Below are positions 37,875-48,041 of a stretch of 64,000 nt of DNA, one piece after another. The notes under the pieces are model-generated. The model had not been told where the DNA came from. It saw only the letters and a list, made by a program, of their open reading frames with translations, and searched no databases. This DNA is from a bacterium. GTDB taxonomy: Bacteria; Patescibacteriota; Minisyncoccia; Phycocordibacterales; Phycocordibacteraceae. The DNA lies in contig JBBCGK010000001.1 in assembly GCA_037200965.1 (NCBI GenBank), positions 832,001 through 896,000 on the forward strand, read 5' to 3'. The position numbers and the translations under genes are program-made. The stretch's first letter is position 1; each line of letters starts with the position of its first letter.

Positions 37875-38333
37875 ATGCGCCTACGGGCATTGAAACCCGA
37901 GATTGTTCATATCGAAGGAAATGCCTTGGTTCCGGCCAAGGCCGTTTCTTATGTGCTCGATGCGAACGGGAAGATCGTCGAAACGGTTAAACCGAGAACC
38001 CATGCATTTGAGAACGAACTAAAGGCGAAAATGAGAAGTGAACTCAAAGGAATCTCTCTATTCCCTACGAAGAATAAAGTATTTGTATCGATTATATGCG
38101 GACTTAATTCCAGCCATGAATATGAGAATCTTGACTTGGACAACAGAGTGAAAACCATTCTGGATGCATTGAAAGAGGTAGTATATGAGGATGATAAGCA
38201 GGTTAAGGTCTTACTGGCCGACAAGATATTTTTAAAGCACAAGCCGGAGAGCTACTTTCAGTTCAGTATCAAAGTGTTGGACGAGAAGACCGAGCGATTG
38301 TTATACAGGCATCTGTCGAAGATAGGCAGGTAA
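37875..38333 (+). CDS. RusA-like Holliday junction resolvase family protein
   Basis: NLDLDNRVKTILDALKEVVYEDDKQV matches the RusA catalytic core DLDN..K...DAL......DD.QV. The gene and its flanks are AT-rich relative to the surroundings. Confidence 0.6.
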   Translation: MRLRALKPEIVHIEGNALVPAKAVSYVLDANGKIVETVKPRTHAFENELKAKMRSELKGISLFPTKNKVFVSIICGLNSSHEYENLDLDNRVKTILDALKEVVYEDDKQVKVLLADKIFLKHKPESYFQFSIKVLDEKTERLLYRHLSKIGR

Positions 38334-40232: not shown

Positions 40233-40375
40233 CGGAAAAGGGATCGACTTCCAACCTTTCACAAGTCGCCGCTTGCGAATTGCTGACACGAGTCAGGGTG
40301 TATCCCTCAAAACCCATGAAATTATTCGGAGAATAACCAGCAAAAAGAGCAGCAGCCTCGGCTGCCGCTCTTTTG

Positions 40376-40966
40376 CTATACCGTTTCTTCCGGAACCGCC
40401 TTAAGTTTCTTGAATCTCGCGTGGCCTATGAAGAAGGCGATTCCCGCGACGAGAAGCACGATAGGCCAGCGGAAAACTCCGAGCCAGCCGAAGGTGAAGA
40501 AGCCGAAGAGGTAGGCGATCGTGAACAGCACCACCGACCACAGCACGTCCGAAATGAAGACGATCGGCGCGAACCGCTTCCACGGCACCCCGAAGAATCC
40601 GCAGGCGAGGAATATCGGAAGCCGGAAACCCGGAAGGAAGCGGGCCGTAAGCACGGTCGTCAGGAGTTCGTCGTGGATCCAGTTCTTGAAAGGGGCAGCG
40701 CGCTCGTGCTCGACGAAGCTCTGGAGCCAGGGATGGGTCCTGGCATAGCTTCCGATGCCGTAGAAGAGGAAGTCCGTGACCGCGACACCAAAGATTACGG
40801 CGGGCACCGCGACGAGCGGGGAGATATAGCGGTCCGCGGCCATCACCCCCGCAAAGACGACCGATACGTCCTCGAGGAGCATGCTGCCGAGGGCGATAAA
40901 GAGGGGCAGGTACCCGCTGTGCGCCCCCGCCTCGAGCATGTGGTGGATAAGGAACGAGAGATGCAT
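40376..40966 (-). CDS. DedA/VTT family membrane protein
   Basis: Multi-TM with the conserved FLPGFR motif of the DedA family. Confidence 0.7.
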   Translation of the reverse strand: MHLSFLIHHMLEAGAHSGYLPLFIALGSMLLEDVSVVFAGVMAADRYISPLVAVPAVIFGVAVTDFLFYGIGSYARTHPWLQSFVEHERAAPFKNWIHDELLTTVLTARFLPGFRLPIFLACGFFGVPWKRFAPIVFISDVLWSVVLFTIAYLFGFFTFGWLGVFRWPIVLLVAGIAFFIGHARFKKLKAVPEETV

Positions 40967-41090
40967 TGTTTTTATATTACCTTGATATCACTGGTATATC
41001 ATTCTAACGTTCTTTACAAACACCTCATTCATACCTGTTTGAAATTTTCTAGTTTTAGTAGATTCTCTTTCCGTTGAACAGAACTAGTCC

Positions 41091-41117
41091 CTTATAAGCG
41101 TTTGCATTCCTTATAAG
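41091..41117. promoter_or_regulatory. Two copies of the palindrome CTTATAAG spaced 19 bp apart, overlapping a TTGCAT-17-TACACT promoter-like element upstream of the island operon
   Basis: cCTTATAAGcgtttgcattcCTTATAAGgagatagtacact, read directly. The ATG of the 77-aa ORF lies ~20 nt downstream. Confidence 0.3.
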
Positions 41118-41136
41118 GAGATAGTACACTTTAAAT

Positions 41137-41370
41137 ATGAACAAGGAAAAGATTAAAGGAGAGTCATCTAGGGATAGATTTAAGCGTTTAGCAACGCTTC
41201 GTACCAACGGAGTACTCAGTCGGCTTAAAATACTTGGAAATTGTTCCAATCGTCATGTCTATGAATACGACGAGGAAGATATAGATAAAATCTTTTTTGA
41301 AATTGAACGCAAACTTAAGGAAGTAAAGGCTAAGTTTCATTTTCCAAAGCAGCGTGATTTTAAATTATAG
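41137..41370 (+). CDS. Small basic hypothetical protein (77 aa) coupled to the downstream large gene
   Basis: AT-rich ORF. Its stop is 5 nt before the 41376 start. No recognisable HTH. Confidence 0.45.
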   Translation: MNKEKIKGESSRDRFKRLATLRTNGVLSRLKILGNCSNRHVYEYDEEDIDKIFFEIERKLKEVKAKFHFPKQRDFKL

Positions 41371-41375
41371 AAACT

Positions 41376-43889
41376 ATGTCGCGGCCTCTAAAAAATAGAG
41401 AAGTCTTTTCGAAACTACTCAGCGCAGTTTCTTCAGAAGAGATAGCGTCTTTAATCGAAAACGAAGTCTTTTTTAAACCAGAAAATTGCAGATGGATTCC
41501 TTATGGAAGACGTGAGCTGAATGCCCCACAGATCGAGGGACAAATGAAAAGCTCAAGTAATGCGTTGGTAGAAAAAATCACCAATTCAACAGATGCTCTC
41601 CTAATGAGGCGATGCTATGAAGTCGAAGGGGTGGCACCTAATAGCGAAGACAAACGATTACCCAAGACTCTTTCTGAAGCAATTACAAAATATTTTGGAA
41701 GCGAAGAAGAAATAAATAAAAATCGAAGCGCATGGGCAAGACAGCATCTCATGGTTTTGGCTGAGGGTGATAAAAAGAGGCCAACAATTACTGTTATTGA
41801 TCGAGGCGAAGGACAAACTCCCAATAGAATTCAGGATACAATCGTTGGCTTGAGCGAGAGCATAAAGGAGAAAATAAATTTTGTTTTTGGTAAATACCAT
41901 CAAGGAGGGTCAGCCGCTATACGTTTTGCAGGTAGCAAAGCTAAGTGCTACCAGCTTGTCCTGTCCCGGCGCGCGGAGAGTATTGCCGATAAAGGTAAAG
42001 AAAATCCGTGGGGATTTACGTTGGTAAGGAAAAGTTTTAAAAACAGAGTTCCTTATTACGAATACTGCACAGACAAGGATGAAAACACCTTTTCTTTCCC
42101 GTACGATAAACCAATAAAAATTGATGGTCTGGAACTGGACTTTATCGATGGGTCACTTATCCGTATGTACGATTACTACTTGGATAATCCATCAAATATC
42201 ACTTTCGGGTTTCATTCACTGGCCTTCGATTTTGATCAAAAGTTACAGAAACCGCCACTCCCTATCTTTCTGCAAGATAAGAGAGGATGGAAAGGAGACA
42301 CTAAATATACAATTGCAGGCTTACTAAGGCGAATTGAGGATAATAAAAATATTATCAGCGATGATATTACCCTTCCTGCAGGTTTAGGAGAGATCGGAAC
42401 TCGCAATATCCGCTGCATTCGCTTGAAGCATATAAGCGATGCGGAAGGAGTAAAATCCTATAAAGAATTAAATCAGAAAATATTCTACCTGGAAAACGGT
42501 TTGGCTTTGGGATATGAGACCGAATCTTTTGTGCGAACAGATTGTCAGCTTCCCGCTCTGGCCCCCTATCTCCTCTGTTATATCGATATGTCTGATATTC
42601 CAGTTGAGTTGGTAAATATCTTTCACTCTGGAAGAGAAGAATTGGCTCGAACCGAGGATTATCACATCTTAAAAGATCGCCTAAAAAAGTTCTTTGAGAA
42701 TGAAGTCTTTGAGAAGTGGGATAGAGAATACCAAGAAAAAAGCTTGATCAATTCCAATGAGGATAATAAGGAACTCGATAAGCTCATTGAGAAGGCCATC
42801 GTCGATGATCCGGAACTCAAGGAGTTACTGGGTATTGGTGAAGAAATCAAGATCCCGAAGGGGAAAGAGGAGAATAAGGAGAAGTACATTGGCGAGGAAC
42901 ATCCAAAAATGTTTGAGCTTGTAGGGAGTCAACCAAAAGAGGTTGATAAATCTTCTTACGCCCTTATATCTTTTAAGACCGAGGCAGAAGATAAACTCTT
43001 TACTAGAAAAAAGAGCCGCTATTATATTGATTGGTCCAAAGATTCAACCATCCTTGATGTGGTGGTTCGTAGTATGAATAAAGGTATTGTGTCTTTGCGC
43101 GTGGATTGCAGGGAACATGCCAGCGTTGGCGATCAGGATAAGATTACTTTCACTCTGCTGGATTCTGAAAAAGTAAAAAAGTTTGAACAAATCGTTACAT
43201 TTAACGTAATTGAAACACCGCCTTATGAAGGTTCATATTTCCCAACGTACTTTAAGCCATTGAAGAAAACGCTGAAGATTCCATCGAAAACAAACAAAAA
43301 GTTTAGTTTTGCTACAGACGTTGCAAATGATTATTTCTCCAGAGAGGATGATCCTGGATTGTTTGAATTTGAAGATCGTGATGATCTGCGTTTAAAAAAG
43401 TCCCGTTTAAATGATGGCGTTCTCGAAATTACCTTTTATGCCGCTACTGAAAAGTTGGGGAAACTACCGGATGCTAAAGTAGTAATTAGCGATACTTCAA
43501 ATCATACGTTTGATATCTCTATACCCATCGAGATCGTCTCTCCCGAGGAGAGTTCCAGGCTTAACGAACCAAAGAGAAATCCTGTATATGAAAGAGACTG
43601 GCCCACTCACGGCTGGGATGAACATAGTATTGCCAGTGTTGATTCGTCCAGGACACAAGGCTTAATAGTAAATTTGAACGTAGATTCTAAGCCCTTGAAG
43701 GATTTAAAGAAAATGGTTGGCCTTGATAAAGTCGGAAGCGCAGAGAATAAATATATTGCCGATATTTACATTTATTCCCTCTATCTTTATTTTGAACTAA
43801 AAAATGATCCTGACAAGGATCGGGTTCTAGGTTCTGCAATGAAGGCTATTGGGAAGGCCCTTCCCGGAATGATAAGAAAAATCATTTAA
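41376..43889 (+). CDS. Large (837 aa) protein with an N-terminal GHKL (MutL/MORC/HATPase_c-like) ATPase domain; C-terminal ~600 aa unassigned
   Basis: Bergerat-fold motifs: N-box LVEKITNSTDAL (E..NS.DA), G1 box ITVIDRGEGQTP (DxGxG), G2-like FGKYHQGGSAAI. The gene is AT-rich and convergent with a DNA MTase. Confidence 0.6.
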   Translation: MSRPLKNREVFSKLLSAVSSEEIASLIENEVFFKPENCRWIPYGRRELNAPQIEGQMKSSSNALVEKITNSTDALLMRRCYEVEGVAPNSEDKRLPKTLSEAITKYFGSEEEINKNRSAWARQHLMVLAEGDKKRPTITVIDRGEGQTPNRIQDTIVGLSESIKEKINFVFGKYHQGGSAAIRFAGSKAKCYQLVLSRRAESIADKGKENPWGFTLVRKSFKNRVPYYEYCTDKDENTFSFPYDKPIKIDGLELDFIDGSLIRMYDYYLDNPSNITFGFHSLAFDFDQKLQKPPLPIFLQDKRGWKGDTKYTIAGLLRRIEDNKNIISDDITLPAGLGEIGTRNIRCIRLKHISDAEGVKSYKELNQKIFYLENGLALGYETESFVRTDCQLPALAPYLLCYIDMSDIPVELVNIFHSGREELARTEDYHILKDRLKKFFENEVFEKWDREYQEKSLINSNEDNKELDKLIEKAIVDDPELKELLGIGEEIKIPKGKEENKEKYIGEEHPKMFELVGSQPKEVDKSSYALISFKTEAEDKLFTRKKSRYYIDWSKDSTILDVVVRSMNKGIVSLRVDCREHASVGDQDKITFTLLDSEKVKKFEQIVTFNVIETPPYEGSYFPTYFKPLKKTLKIPSKTNKKFSFATDVANDYFSREDDPGLFEFEDRDDLRLKKSRLNDGVLEITFYAATEKLGKLPDAKVVISDTSNHTFDISIPIEIVSPEESSRLNEPKRNPVYERDWPTHGWDEHSIASVDSSRTQGLIVNLNVDSKPLKDLKKMVGLDKVGSAENKYIADIYIYSLYLYFELKNDPDKDRVLGSAMKAIGKALPGMIRKII

Positions 43890-45202
43890 TTCTTCTCCAT
43901 TACGACTATATATTCAAATTCATACGCACGAGTTTTTGAAGGATTGTCCATTCCAGTAAACTTTCCGCTTTCAGTATCACGCCACGGAGTTATCATTTTA
44001 TTTGGTATTTCCCGCTTAATAAAGTCTACGTTCGTAAAACCAGCGGCCTGCATCTGTTCTGCCGCCACCTGTGCGTTCTGAATTTCTACACCCCGAAGAC
44101 TTGTGTTTCCAATAATTACGCAAGCCTTCCCGCCCTTCTTAAGAATTCGATGAGCCTCGGCGAAGACTTTTTTCATATCTAGGAAGTAATTAGCAACGTC
44201 GATAGCAAGCGGGCGTTCAACTAGCATGAGATCGTCGACAATTTTCGCCCCTATGATGCTATTAAAATTGCCGGCCTTTTTGGTCTTTGAACTCGTACCA
44301 ATAAAAGTTCTGCGAAAATCTATGAAACTATTACTGAAGTGATGCCATTTCTTGAAGTGTTTAGCATCGTCCCCGAACCACAGCAACGTAAGCTGATGAA
44401 GATCAGCATACTCATAGGAAGTCACATAAGGCGGAGAAGTCACTATCAAGTCGATAGATTCGGATTTAATTGGGAATGTTTTGGTCGAATCTCGACGATA
44501 CATTTTTGTCGGGATGCTGATGCGTTTTGCTTCAGCTAGGTTGTTGTAAAATAAATCATTCTTTCTAATCATTGAATCCAGATGTCGAAGAAAGGACTGT
44601 TTAGGGACCGGTATGATCTTGTCTTTGTCAACTGTCGGCTTGATACTTTTCATTAACCATCGAGAGCAGTTTTTCAGGTTATGTGAGAAAGCGCACAAGA
44701 AAAATCTACGAACGTGCGGACTCTTAATTTTCTTTATTGCAAAGTAAATTCTATCGAGCTCAATAACGGTTTCCGCATCGAACCAATAAGTAATTCGAGC
44801 ATGATGTGGGCGAGAGACGCTCGGAGCTGCATCATAGTATTCCAAGAATCTCTCTTTATGATTTGCAAGTGTACGCGGCTTAATCGCGGTGGTCTTTGTT
44901 TGAGTGATTAACTTCGCAACTGGATTTATATCAAAGCCGATACTCGGATGTCCTAGTAACTTTGCTTCCACCAAAGTCGTGCCACACCCACCGAATGGAT
45001 CACAAACGACTTGTGTAGTATGCGGCGCGTAATCTTCAATCAATTTACGAACAATTTGCGGAATAAACTTTGCCGGGTAACGATGATAGTCGTGGGAAAA
45101 GGCAGTAGTTTGTGAGCGACCAATATCTCGAAAAGACCACTCTTCACGCGGTTGCAGGCTTAAAAAAGTATTTCGGATGTTTTCGATATCAACAGTGGCC
45201 AT
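43886..45202 (-). CDS. N6-adenine/N4-cytosine DNA methyltransferase
   Basis: Motif X/I YPAKFIPQIVRKLIEDYAPHTTQVVCDPFGGCGTT and motif IV LIVTSPPY. AT-rich. Start taken at MATVDIEN; the longer ORF runs to 45277. Confidence 0.8.
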   Translation of the reverse strand: MATVDIENIRNTFLSLQPREEWSFRDIGRSQTTAFSHDYHRYPAKFIPQIVRKLIEDYAPHTTQVVCDPFGGCGTTLVEAKLLGHPSIGFDINPVAKLITQTKTTAIKPRTLANHKERFLEYYDAAPSVSRPHHARITYWFDAETVIELDRIYFAIKKIKSPHVRRFFLCAFSHNLKNCSRWLMKSIKPTVDKDKIIPVPKQSFLRHLDSMIRKNDLFYNNLAEAKRISIPTKMYRRDSTKTFPIKSESIDLIVTSPPYVTSYEYADLHQLTLLWFGDDAKHFKKWHHFSNSFIDFRRTFIGTSSKTKKAGNFNSIIGAKIVDDLMLVERPLAIDVANYFLDMKKVFAEAHRILKKGGKACVIIGNTSLRGVEIQNAQVAAEQMQAAGFTNVDFIKREIPNKMITPWRDTESGKFTGMDNPSKTRAYEFEYIVVMEKN

Positions 45203-45352
45203 ACTAAGAGGTAGTATAAGGGCAGGCCGGAGACGATTCAAGCACATGTCGTGTGTTCTTTGGCCCGGAGGAGCCACAGCAGATTCCGAAGTACATACAA
45301 GCGGTATCTTCGGTTTATTCGATAATTATCACCACGCGCGTATAATGGCTGC

Positions 45353-46354
45353 ATGGCTAAACGGAAAAAGGACTCAGAGATACATATGCCCGTCGATGTC
45401 GTCGTGTACCAGGCCAAAAGCGGAGCTATCGAGCTGCGCGGCGATTTCAGCAGGGAAACGGTCTGGGCGACGCAGGCACAGATTGCAGAGGTTTTCGGCG
45501 TTGAGCGATCCGTCGTGACCAAGCACATCCGGAATATTCTCAAGGACAAGGAACTTGAGGAACGTTCAGTACGTGCAAAACTTGCACATACTGCCGGGGA
45601 CGGCAAGACGTACCAAGTCGAGCATTATAACCTCGATGCCATCATTTCCGTTGGATATCGCGTGAACTCAAAGACAGCCACGGCGTTCCGCCAGTGGGCG
45701 ACGAAGACCCTGCGCTCGCATATCGTCGAGGGCTATACGATCAACCGCGCCCGCGTCGCGAAGAACTACGACGCGTTCATACGCGCGGTCGGTGAGATCA
45801 AGGCGCTTTTGCCCTCCCGTGCCGCGATCGGGGACGCAGGCGTCCTTGAGCTTGTCGCATTTTTCGCAGACACCTGGCTGTCGCTCGATGCGTACGATCG
45901 CGAGCGCTTCGTCCCGGTCCGCACGACCCGCAAGAAGGTCGCGCTTACCGCCGACATCCTCATGCGGAGCGTCTCGGTCCTTAAGTCGGAACTCATCGCG
46001 CGCGGCGAAGCGTCGGAACTCTTCGCCGCCGAGCGGGAGGTGAAGGCCCTTGAAGGGATCGTCGGCAACGTCTTGCAGTCGTTTGGCGGAAAAGAGCTCT
46101 ATCCGAGCGTCGAGGAGAAGGCGGCGCACCTTCTTTATTTCATCGTGAAAAACCATCCGTTCGCAGGCGGCAATAAACGCACGGGCGCATACGCGTTCGT
46201 CTGGTTCCTTGACCGTGCGAAGGTACTGGACCGGGAACGCATTACCCCGAGCGCACTCACCGCGCTCACGCTGCTCGTCGCGGAGAGCGATCCGAAGGAG
46301 AAAGAACGCATTACCGGCCTCGTGACGATGCTTCTCGGGCTCTCAAAGAAATGA
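45353..46354 (+). CDS. RhuM-family N-terminal domain fused to a Fic/Doc domain
   Basis: The N-terminal IELRGDFSRETVWATQAQIAEVFGVERSVVTKHIRNI...YNLDAIISVGYRVNSKTATAFRQWAT matches RhuM. The C-terminal HPFAGGNKRTGAYAF matches the Doc-type HxFx(D/N)(A/G)NKR motif. Confidence 0.75.
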   Translation: MAKRKKDSEIHMPVDVVVYQAKSGAIELRGDFSRETVWATQAQIAEVFGVERSVVTKHIRNILKDKELEERSVRAKLAHTAGDGKTYQVEHYNLDAIISVGYRVNSKTATAFRQWATKTLRSHIVEGYTINRARVAKNYDAFIRAVGEIKALLPSRAAIGDAGVLELVAFFADTWLSLDAYDRERFVPVRTTRKKVALTADILMRSVSVLKSELIARGEASELFAAEREVKALEGIVGNVLQSFGGKELYPSVEEKAAHLLYFIVKNHPFAGGNKRTGAYAFVWFLDRAKVLDRERITPSALTALTLLVAESDPKEKERITGLVTMLLGLSKK

Positions 46355-46361
46355 CGGGTAT

Positions 46362-48041
46362 ATGACGCAAGGCGAAGCGCTCAATATCCTCAAGACAGGC
46401 GCGAACGTCTTTCTCACGGGCGAGCCTGGGAGCGGCAAGACCCACACCGTAAACGAATATGTCGCATGGCTCCGTTCCCATGACATCGAGCCCGCGATCA
46501 CGGCTTCGACCGGGATAGCCGCCACCCATATCCAGGGAATGACGATCCACTCATGGAGCGGCATCGGGATAGCGGAATCGCTGTCGGAAGCCGATCTCGA
46601 CCGGATCGCAAGCAAGGAGCACGTCGCGCGGAGAATCGCGAAGACGCATGTTCTCATTATCGACGAGGTGTCGATGCTATCGGGCGAAGTGCTCCGGATG
46701 GCGGACCGGGTATGCCGGGAAGTGCGCAGAAGGCCGGAGCCGTTCGGCGGGCTGCAGGTGGTTCTCGTGGGCGATTTCTTCCAGCTGCCGCCCGTGACCC
46801 GGGGGGGAAAGGAAGTAAGCTTCGCCTTCGATTCGCCTTCGTGGCGGGAGCTCAACCCGATCATCTGCTATCTCACCGAACAGCACCGGCAGGACGACGC
46901 GAAGTTCACCGCCGTGCTCTCGGCGATACGCGCGGGAGACTGGGACCAGTCGCATGTTTCGGCGATCACATCCCGCGAGACCGACGGCGACGAGCTCGGG
47001 GACGAGACGCCCCGGCTCTTCACGCACAATGCGGACGTGGACCGTATCAACGGCGACAAGCTCGCGGGCATTAAAGGAAACGCGAAGACGTACGAAATGG
47101 AGTCGAGCGGATCCCCGGTCCTCATCGAGGCGCTTAAGCGCGGCTGCCTTTCGCCCGAAACTCTTACGCTTAAAGAAGGCGCGATCGTGATGTGCACTAA
47201 GAATAACCAGGCCGCGGGATACGTGAACGGGACCCTGGGAACCGTGATCGGCTTCTCGACAGGCTGGGGCGCCTCCGCGAGCCCCATAATCGAGACGAAA
47301 GACGGCCGCGAACTCACCATAGAGCCCGCGGACTGGGCGGTCGAAGAAAACGGCAAGGTACGGGCGAAAGTAACTCAGGTGCCGCTCCGCCTTGCCTGGG
47401 CGATCACGGTCCACAAAAGCCAGGGGATGAGTATGGACAGTGCGGCTATGGACCTCTCGAGGGCATTTGAATACGGGCAAGGATATGTGGCGCTCTCGCG
47501 TGTACGGTCGCTCGACGGACTCCACCTCCTTGGCTGGAGCGAGGAAGCGCTCAGGGTACATCCGGCCGTGGCCGCGAGGGATGCGGAATTCCGCGAGGCT
47601 TCGCTTGAAGCGGGCGCGGCATTTTCAGCGCTCGAAGAAGACGGGAGCCGTGAGACTATGGAGCGCAATTTCATCAAGGCCTCGGGCGGCACGCTTGAGG
47701 CGCGGGAAGCGGGGAAGCCCAAACCACCAAAGAGAAGCACGTACGAAGAAACCCTCGCGCTTATCGAAGCGGGGAAGACGATCGAGGGAGTGGCAGCCGC
47801 CCGCGCGCTCACGTTCGGCACCATCACGGACCACGTGGAGAAGCTCGTGAAGGGCGGGAAGCTCGATACGGAAGACGTGCGGCGCATTATCCCGGTCAGA
47901 CTCCACGATGCGCTCCCGGATATTTTCGAGGTATTCCGGGCCGTGGGCGCAGAGAAGCTCGCGCCCGCATTCGCGCGGCTTGGGAGCGAGCACGGCTACG
48001 ACGACCTGCGTCTCGCGCGGCTTCTCTATGAACGAAAGTAG
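46362..48041 (+). CDS. PIF1/RecD-like SF1B DNA helicase with a C-terminal HTH-like domain
   Basis: Walker A GEPGSGKTH, Walker B IIDEVSML, FGGLQVVLVGDFFQLPPV (PIF1 signature), and a C-terminal KTIEGVAAARALTFGTITDHVEKLVKGG. Confidence 0.8.
   Translation: MTQGEALNILKTGANVFLTGEPGSGKTHTVNEYVAWLRSHDIEPAITASTGIAATHIQGMTIHSWSGIGIAESLSEADLDRIASKEHVARRIAKTHVLIIDEVSMLSGEVLRMADRVCREVRRRPEPFGGLQVVLVGDFFQLPPVTRGGKEVSFAFDSPSWRELNPIICYLTEQHRQDDAKFTAVLSAIRAGDWDQSHVSAITSRETDGDELGDETPRLFTHNADVDRINGDKLAGIKGNAKTYEMESSGSPVLIEALKRGCLSPETLTLKEGAIVMCTKNNQAAGYVNGTLGTVIGFSTGWGASASPIIETKDGRELTIEPADWAVEENGKVRAKVTQVPLRLAWAITVHKSQGMSMDSAAMDLSRAFEYGQGYVALSRVRSLDGLHLLGWSEEALRVHPAVAARDAEFREASLEAGAAFSALEEDGSRETMERNFIKASGGTLEAREAGKPKPPKRSTYEETLALIEAGKTIEGVAAARALTFGTITDHVEKLVKGGKLDTEDVRRIIPVRLHDALPDIFEVFRAVGAEKLAPAFARLGSEHGYDDLRLARLLYERK

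Follow-up and report, generated by a model that had tools for sequence, protein, structure and literature searches.

We analyzed a stretch of 64,000 nucleotides, hereafter the window, from a bacterium of the Phycocordibacteraceae (Patescibacteriota; contig JBBCGK010000001.1 of assembly GCA_037200965.1, positions 832,001 to 896,000), with a focus on an 837-amino-acid (aa) protein encoded at window positions 41376-43889 on the plus strand. Its gene sits in an island of low guanine-plus-cytosine (GC) content (40967-45210, 4.2 kb) that holds exactly three genes: one for a small basic protein, one for the 837-aa protein, which is an ATPase and the large subunit of the set, and one for an N4/N6 DNA methyltransferase. 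Composition profiles show it sharply delimited, at 35-47% GC (about 40%) against about 58% in its flanks. A VTT/DedA-family gene (40376-40966, minus strand) and a RhuM-Fic gene (45353-46354) flank the insertion on the left and the right. A nucleotide identity of 79% to a locus in a Saccharibacteria metagenome-assembled genome (L020) is limited to window positions 41173-45153, the three genes. As homology is confined to them, the cassette itself is the mobile unit, and it was probably acquired from a low-GC donor (Patescibacteria-like or similar) into a high-GC bacterium. Neither flanking direct repeats indicative of target-site duplication nor an adjacent recombinase was found for the island in the window, and a large serine recombinase stands beside the cassette in at least nine loci. 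The three genes form a horizontally mobile cassette.

The open reading frame (ORF) of the ATPase starts with an ATG at 41376, ends with a stop codon at 43887-43889 and is the sole long ORF there. An initial annotation had given this ORF its coordinates and length, which our translation and an identical gene call at the same locus in an independent assembly (L103) corroborate, and had read a GHKL ATPase head at its N-terminus. Direct database searches did not recover that head; it is borne out by invariant motifs, by a structural model and by distant relatives. The Bergerat-fold ATP-binding domain spans residues 56-295 (41541-42260, plus strand). In alignments of 31 and 29 diverse homologues, E66, N70 and D73 of the N-box (E66-K-I-T-N70-S-T-D73-A) are invariant, and the G1 box (D142-R-G144-E-G146-Q), the G2 box or lid (G172-K-Y-H-Q-G177-G178) and motif IV (G213-F-T215-L-V-R218) are invariant or nearly so. 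Members of the second alignment share only 22-39% identity, and the GHKL motifs are still invariant among them. A catalytic Glu four residues before the Asn, as in the spacing of E66 and N70, is the pattern of hydrolyzing GHKL ATPases. An AlphaFold2 (AF2) model built on the family alignment was confident (predicted local distance difference test score, pLDDT, 83.9) and displays the Bergerat fold, with Hsp90, GyrB, Topo VI and GRP94 as its best Foldseek matches at E values of about 1e-9. Upstream of this domain, residues 1-55 (41376-41540, plus strand) form two helices and a strand with invariant W40, G44 and N49 according to the alignments and AF2 secondary structure, and by analogy with other GHKL ATPases they are possibly a dimerization strap.

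Directly after the GHKL domain comes an S5-like, Hsp90-middle-like transducer (residues 296-420; 42261-42635, plus strand) with conserved R303, G315, N374-G375, D404 and R420. Its presence at about these positions is indicated by the Foldseek alignments, because their aligned lengths span two domains. The initial annotation had invoked the MutL/MORC paradigm, in which a transducer follows the ATPase, and had seen no S5-fold signature beyond about residue 200; the paradigm holds structurally and the absence does not. In the alignments R303 is near-invariant and R420 invariant, making them candidates for the basic residue by which a transducer would contact the gamma-phosphate, and the pattern ID404-x-SD...F-x-S-x-R420-E presumably recalls the catalytic loop of the Hsp90 middle domain. 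The order of a GHKL domain and an S5-like transducer places the protein in the MutL/MORC/Hsp90/GyrB class.

At the sequence level the protein is nearly invisible to databases. Searches against Pfam, PADLOC, NCBIfam and the sequences of the PDB gave nothing significant. No Pfam match to HATPase_c or HATPase_c_3 appeared even at E<1, the sole Pfam signal was a sub-threshold DUF6200, and queries of the PDB sequences, made with the protein itself and with two family profiles, returned chance matches (malic enzyme, phospholipase) or none. HATPase_c_3 was reached by 8 of 29 distant relatives, with a best E value of 1.4e-5. When the family profile was compared by hhalign with a neighboring paraMORC/HEF_HK protein, the G1 box alone was aligned, at a probability of 1.9%. 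A search of 5.8 billion proteins yielded 108 homologues, many of them from Patescibacteria; all are named hypothetical and carry no Pfam domain.

The part of the protein beyond the transducer falls into four domains. An acidic helical linker (residues 421-487; 42636-42836, plus strand), defined by AF2 secondary structure, pLDDT and domain charge, is followed by a disordered loop of low model confidence at residues 488-505. Two immunoglobulin (Ig)-like beta-sandwiches come next on the same strand. The first (residues 506-616; 42891-43223) bears the family-wide motif FxT(D/E)AxDxxxxR, which includes T535 and R544, whereas the second (residues 617-724; 43224-43547), delineated by the AF2 model and by tandem-Ig matches, is missing from short family forms of about 760 aa (an alignment gap in P0091-P0101). 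In fold searches the sandwiches match domains of the S-layer protein SbsC, intimin D00-D0, filamin and MSP. The C-terminal domain (residues 725-837, 113 residues; 43548-43886, plus strand) combines a three-stranded sheet with a long helical hairpin, and its residues P732, W742 and N768 are invariant. It has no fold match and is not recognizable as a nuclease; by likeness to Hsp90 and MutL it is probably a constitutive dimerization domain. We are highly confident of an uncatalogued MORC/MutL/Hsp90-type GHKL ATPase without a recognizable nuclease, and equally so of its order of parts, in which a putative strap leads into the Bergerat ATP-binding domain and the transducer, followed by the helical linker, the pair of Ig-like domains and a C-terminal domain that probably dimerizes.

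A nuclease in this tail had been raised as a possibility in the initial annotation, which saw no Walker or nuclease signature there and noted that the protein, if a fused ATPase-nuclease, would be a single-polypeptide, ATP-dependent restriction factor. The lack of a signature was confirmed: sequence and fold searches (Pfam, PADLOC, NCBIfam, PDB sequences, fold comparison) detected no PD-(D/E)xK, HNH, GIY-YIG, PLD or half-pipe nuclease in the ATPase, the 77-aa protein or the methyltransferase. The polar residues past position 430 that are invariant in the methylase-linked clade (E451, Y452, Y504, T535, R544, K630, N768, Y798 and K827) are scattered across four domains with no cluster of Asp, Glu or His. 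Because no nuclease fold is seen and the invariant polar residues form no such cluster, a fused nuclease is unsupported. A new type of nuclease site hidden in the tail would have precedents in the GHKL-nuclease fusions that defend against phages (paraMORC3/VcSduA, PMC12137116) and in the C-terminal endonuclease of MutL (PMC2292703), and room for a new catalytic fold is left by a C-terminal domain with no fold match in a cassette that otherwise has no nuclease. We nevertheless consider it very improbable, since sister clades encode separate nucleases beside the same tail architecture, which fits an ATPase that partners with nucleases rather than being one.

Nor is the ATPase a system of a single polypeptide, as the initial annotation had considered. 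Ending 5 nucleotides before its start codon, so that translational coupling is likely, is the gene of the 77-aa basic protein (41137-41370, plus strand; isoelectric point, pI, 9.8; motif RFKRLAxxRTNxxLxxLxxLGNCSNRxxYEY). The small protein is encoded immediately upstream of the ATPase in 22 of 23 close-clade loci and directly upstream in 37 loci when distant clades are included. Clustered at 90% identity, its own family runs to at least 4731 homologous clusters, which are uniformly about 72-77 aa long and lack annotation; the names on two JGI records of this family ("CHASE1-domain containing sensor protein" and "YehS DUF1456") are evidently wrong. Searches of the small protein against Pfam, NCBIfam, PADLOC and PDB gave no match, and its profile returned only chance matches to haemagglutinin coiled coils in the PDB. 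Just upstream of the gene, sequence and repeat scans revealed two palindromes CTTATAAG, each within CCTTATAAG (41089-41119, plus strand), 19 nucleotides apart from start to start, the second of which overlaps the AAGGAG ribosome-binding site of the 77-aa gene. An element TTATAAGG recurs in the Patescibacteria loci L012, L038, L026, L031, L019 and L020, where promoter-like hexamers flank it ahead of the small gene. It is possible that the CTTATAAG pair is an operator, which would fit a regulator of the C-protein type. Scans for promoters and terminators gave no signal above background.

The third gene encodes a 438-aa DNA methyltransferase of the N6_N4 family (43886-45202, minus strand, ATG at 45202; Pfam PF01555, 5.9e-19; PADLOC MTase_II, 1.4e-49), also called at 438 aa in L103. 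It converges on the ATPase gene with a 4-nucleotide overlap. Motif I (DPFGGCGTT) precedes motif IV (TSPPY), the alpha-type order, and PDB sequence matches were to a putative modification methylase and an N4-cytosine methyltransferase. SPPY is typical of N4-cytosine methyltransferases, and the motif suggests N4-cytosine as the target. The methylase adjoins the ATPase in all 23 distinct close-clade loci, which are mostly from Patescibacteria, and it is convergent and downstream in all but one of them, the exception being upstream on the same strand. One locus, L039:4965-9889, holds an apparently decayed cassette, with the ATPase ORF cut to 284 aa and the methylase split into two ORFs. Compared with a classical type II restriction-modification (R-M) system, the cassette has the adjacent cognate methyltransferase and lacks a recognizable endonuclease.

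The ATPase family extends far beyond these loci. An exhaustive profile search of 1.84 billion representatives retrieved 2781 clusters (at 50% identity) with E<=1e-3, 1027 of them with E<=1e-30; most are 750-870 aa long, and their matches cover the profile from position 1 to about 615 and again at the C-terminus. With just two short peptide patterns, relatives were identified in at least 361 species-representative genomes, both bacterial and archaeal. Family members compared with PADLOC and NCBIfam gave no match. The family is all but missing from phages, with no occurrence in 50,697 GenBank phage records and two distant relatives in 2.9 million viral contigs. The tandem Ig-like domains might call to mind a structural phage protein or a cell-surface protein. 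That reading is effectively ruled out, its probability being negligible, by the intact ATPase head of cytoplasmic type, the methylase operon and the phage and viral counts; a Pfam scan of the 837-aa protein also revealed no signal peptide or surface-protein family.

Neighborhoods of distant members were surveyed through Pfam matches among 149 neighbors lying no more than two genes away. GmrSD_N was found 8 times, DndB 6, YhcG nuclease 5, phosphoadenosine phosphosulfate (PAPS) reductase 5, Aminotran_5 (cysteine desulfurase) 4, GIY-YIG 4, HNH 3, DUF4007 2 and Pkinase 2. Across the superfamily, the neighbors are nucleases, ParB/Srx-type proteins and enzymes of DNA modification. In five Bacteroidota loci (L046, L047, L050, L052 and L054) the small protein and the ATPase are accompanied by a YhcG/DUF1016 PD-(D/E)xK nuclease in the methylase position, and other distant clades combine DndB with the ATPase, with or without a methylase. 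At 25-30% identity, the ATPases of L010, L013, L014 and L015 lie in phosphorothioation clusters resembling Ssp/BREX type 4 systems, which encode a BrxC-like ATPase, PAPS reductase, DUF262 or DUF4007 and cysteine desulfurase; beside the ATPase in these clusters stands a protein kinase, a SIR2 protein or a HEF_HK/paraMORC "sensor histidine kinase". The HEF_HK protein occurs as a separate neighbor only in three distant loci, L013, L015 and L075. The ATPase family may thus be a common partner of methyl- and phosphorothioate-based systems.

Such neighborhoods bear on two explanations that dispense with restriction. One is that the ATPase acts with the small protein to regulate, target or license the methyltransferase, or elsewhere the phosphorothioation enzymes, much as DndB limits phosphorothioation and as BREX components are needed for methylation by PglX. 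The family's position next to two chemistries, N6_N4 methylases and Ssp/BREX4-like genes with DUF262/DUF4007, agrees with such control, as do its proximity to DndB, which is reported to regulate phosphorothioation (PMC10853773), and the lack of a nuclease in the cassette. It is hard to square, however, with the five Bacteroidota loci, which carry YhcG and whose examined flanks contain no modification gene, and with the members beside GIY-YIG or HNH nucleases. Moreover, the methylase is of the stand-alone, type II-like kind, 438 aa long with its motifs complete, and such enzymes do not usually depend on a helper. We judge control of modification without restriction to be unlikely. The other explanation is a protein-directed abortive-infection or addiction device, in which an Hsp90-like, chaperone- or kinase-like switch would use its Ig-like domains to sense a phage protein and would arrest the cell, with the methylase as an unrelated passenger or an addiction partner. 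Hsp90 chaperones are indeed the best Foldseek matches, Ig-like domains are common protein-binding modules, and a protein kinase or SIR2 protein adjoins the ATPase in some distant loci. The E66/N70 spacing of hydrolyzing GHKL ATPases and the mainly DNA-directed enzymes around the wider family argue otherwise. The methylase is also linked too tightly for a passenger, its gene adjoining that of the ATPase in 23 of 23 loci and the two stop codons overlapping. We rate this explanation as quite improbable.

An R-M-type role is strongly suggested by three features: the N6_N4 methyltransferase that is invariably next door, the mobile island with its low GC content and the defense-type neighbors of the wider family. 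Of the restriction factor considered in the initial annotation, it is this role that context supports and the single fused enzyme that it does not. We propose, with roughly even confidence, that within a compact defense or addiction cassette linked to methylation, the ATPase serves as the subunit on the restriction side. ATPases with a GHKL domain and a transducer, such as MutL, GyrB, Hsp90 and MORC, are ATP-gated dimeric clamps, and MutL licenses the nuclease MutH in trans. In the proposed mechanism, the methyltransferase would mark the host's own sites, and the ATPase, a constitutive dimer through its C-terminal domain, would engage DNA lacking the mark together with the small basic protein. 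As happens in MutL and MORC proteins, ATP binding would then shut the gate at the N-terminus and clamp the DNA. The clamp could either block replication or compact foreign DNA without cutting it, or license a nuclease encoded elsewhere; the latter option fits the separately encoded YhcG, GIY-YIG, HNH or GmrSD nucleases of sister clades. DNA binding, methylation sensing, dimerization, the role of the small protein and defense as the outcome are all features that we infer.

Several observations weigh against a restriction-side role. The cassette encodes no effector, and DNA binding, methyl sensing and anti-phage activity are drawn from context. The association with a methylase fits control of methylation equally well. 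The Ig-like domains present no obvious basic surface, and the whole protein is mildly acidic, with a pI of 6.0. Finally, as judged by sequence comparison, ties to known GHKL families are weak (no Pfam match; hhalign probability as above). A narrower form of the restriction-side proposal is nuclease-free, methylation-guided exclusion, in which a MORC-like clamp loaded by its small partner would entrap or compact unmethylated DNA and so silence it; this we put forward as a tentative possibility.

To our knowledge, very few GHKL-plus-transducer ATPases of R-M systems have been characterized, and those known carry or adjoin a nuclease. ATPases combining GHKL and S5 domains were predicted as R-M components in 2008 (Iyer, Abhiman & Aravind, PMC2292703). 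Of the kinds described so far, the prokaryotic MORC/paraMORC ATPases of that study come closest, and we compared the 837-aa protein with their published descriptions. The GhXhhpXXRhl motif of the MORC S5 domain (PMC2292703) had no match in residues 296-420 on inspection, so the protein is not a MORC sensu stricto. In addition, the cassette has no linked superfamily 2 helicase, and descriptions of paraMORC1-5 mention neither two Ig-like domains nor the unique C-terminal domain nor a 77-aa partner. VcSduA (paraMORC3, or type I-D Shedu), a GHKL ATPase fused to a DUF4263 PD-(D/E)xK nuclease, defends against phage (PMC12137116). It is a stand-alone gene, unlike the 837-aa protein, which has no DUF4263 or other nuclease but has a methylase and a small partner. 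Relative to MutL (with MutH/Vsr) and Hsp90/HtpG, no match to the MutL C-terminal endonuclease/dimerization domain or to the Hsp90 C-terminus was found, and the tandem Ig-like insert and mobile-island location differ from those of housekeeping proteins.

Other known systems share parts of this arrangement. Ambrosia, which combines an XRE regulator, an N6A methylase, a HATPase, a REC protein and an HNH protein, was shown to defend (bioRxiv 10.1101/2025.09.30.679545), and it and the HEF_HK/paraMORC loci (PMC8011034) likewise join a type II-like methylase to an ATPase of the GHKL superfamily. Their HATPase is, however, histidine-kinase-like and accompanied by a response regulator and HNH, whereas the present cassette has neither REC nor HNH. 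BREX resembles it in that a methylase marks self and the system encodes no nuclease, and distant relatives of the ATPase do occur in clusters with BrxC-like and PAPS-reductase genes. Yet no homologues of PglX, PglZ, BrxL or BrxC were detected in the cassette, which has three genes against at least six. Two recent comparative-genomics surveys of Dnd and BREX systems make no mention of GHKL, MORC or HATPase proteins. The phosphorothioation partners SspFGH and PbeABCD were also considered as an identity for the protein and rejected, given the Walker A motif of SspF and the translocase-like character of SspH.

To the left of the island, a 234-aa plus-strand ORF (40373-41077) that runs into it is probably spurious; the independent assembly instead calls the 196-aa minus-strand VTT/DedA gene at 40376-40966, whose start codon abuts the island boundary. 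To the right, at host GC content, the RhuM and Fic/DOC protein (45353-46354) matches the PADLOC candidate PDC-S23 (E value 3e-106) and is followed by a PIF1/RecD-like helicase with a C-terminal HTH_40 domain (46362-48041). Together with the cassette, these two genes look like a small hotspot of defense or mobile elements. A RusA Holliday-junction resolvase gene (37875-38333), isolated among VIT1, DUF218 and DsbA-like thioredoxin genes, is possibly a prophage remnant. The remainder of the window has the gene content of an ordinary chromosome, with TypA/BipA, a DEAD-box helicase, an ABC-F protein and tRNA-Thr.

The new elements of this system are the following: 1) the architecture of the tail; 2) the obligate 77-aa partner; 3) the absence of a recognizable nuclease; and 4) the breadth of an uncatalogued family. 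The ATPase here belongs to a minimal, methylase-linked cassette of three genes without a nuclease, and its family escapes PADLOC and NCBIfam entirely and Pfam almost entirely. If nuclease-free exclusion holds true, it would parallel in bacteria the silencing that MORC proteins mediate in eukaryotes, and one ATPase core would serve as a reader module for methyl and phosphorothioate marks. An excess of methylases over restriction enzymes has been reported for Patescibacteria (bioRxiv 10.64898/2026.07.13.738296), and such exclusion would explain part of it. The ATPase family is especially common in Patescibacteria, whose defense repertoire is poorly known. If the ATPase is indeed the restriction side, the cassette would offer a compact and tractable system for the reading of an epigenetic mark by a clamp and for the exclusion of DNA without a nuclease.

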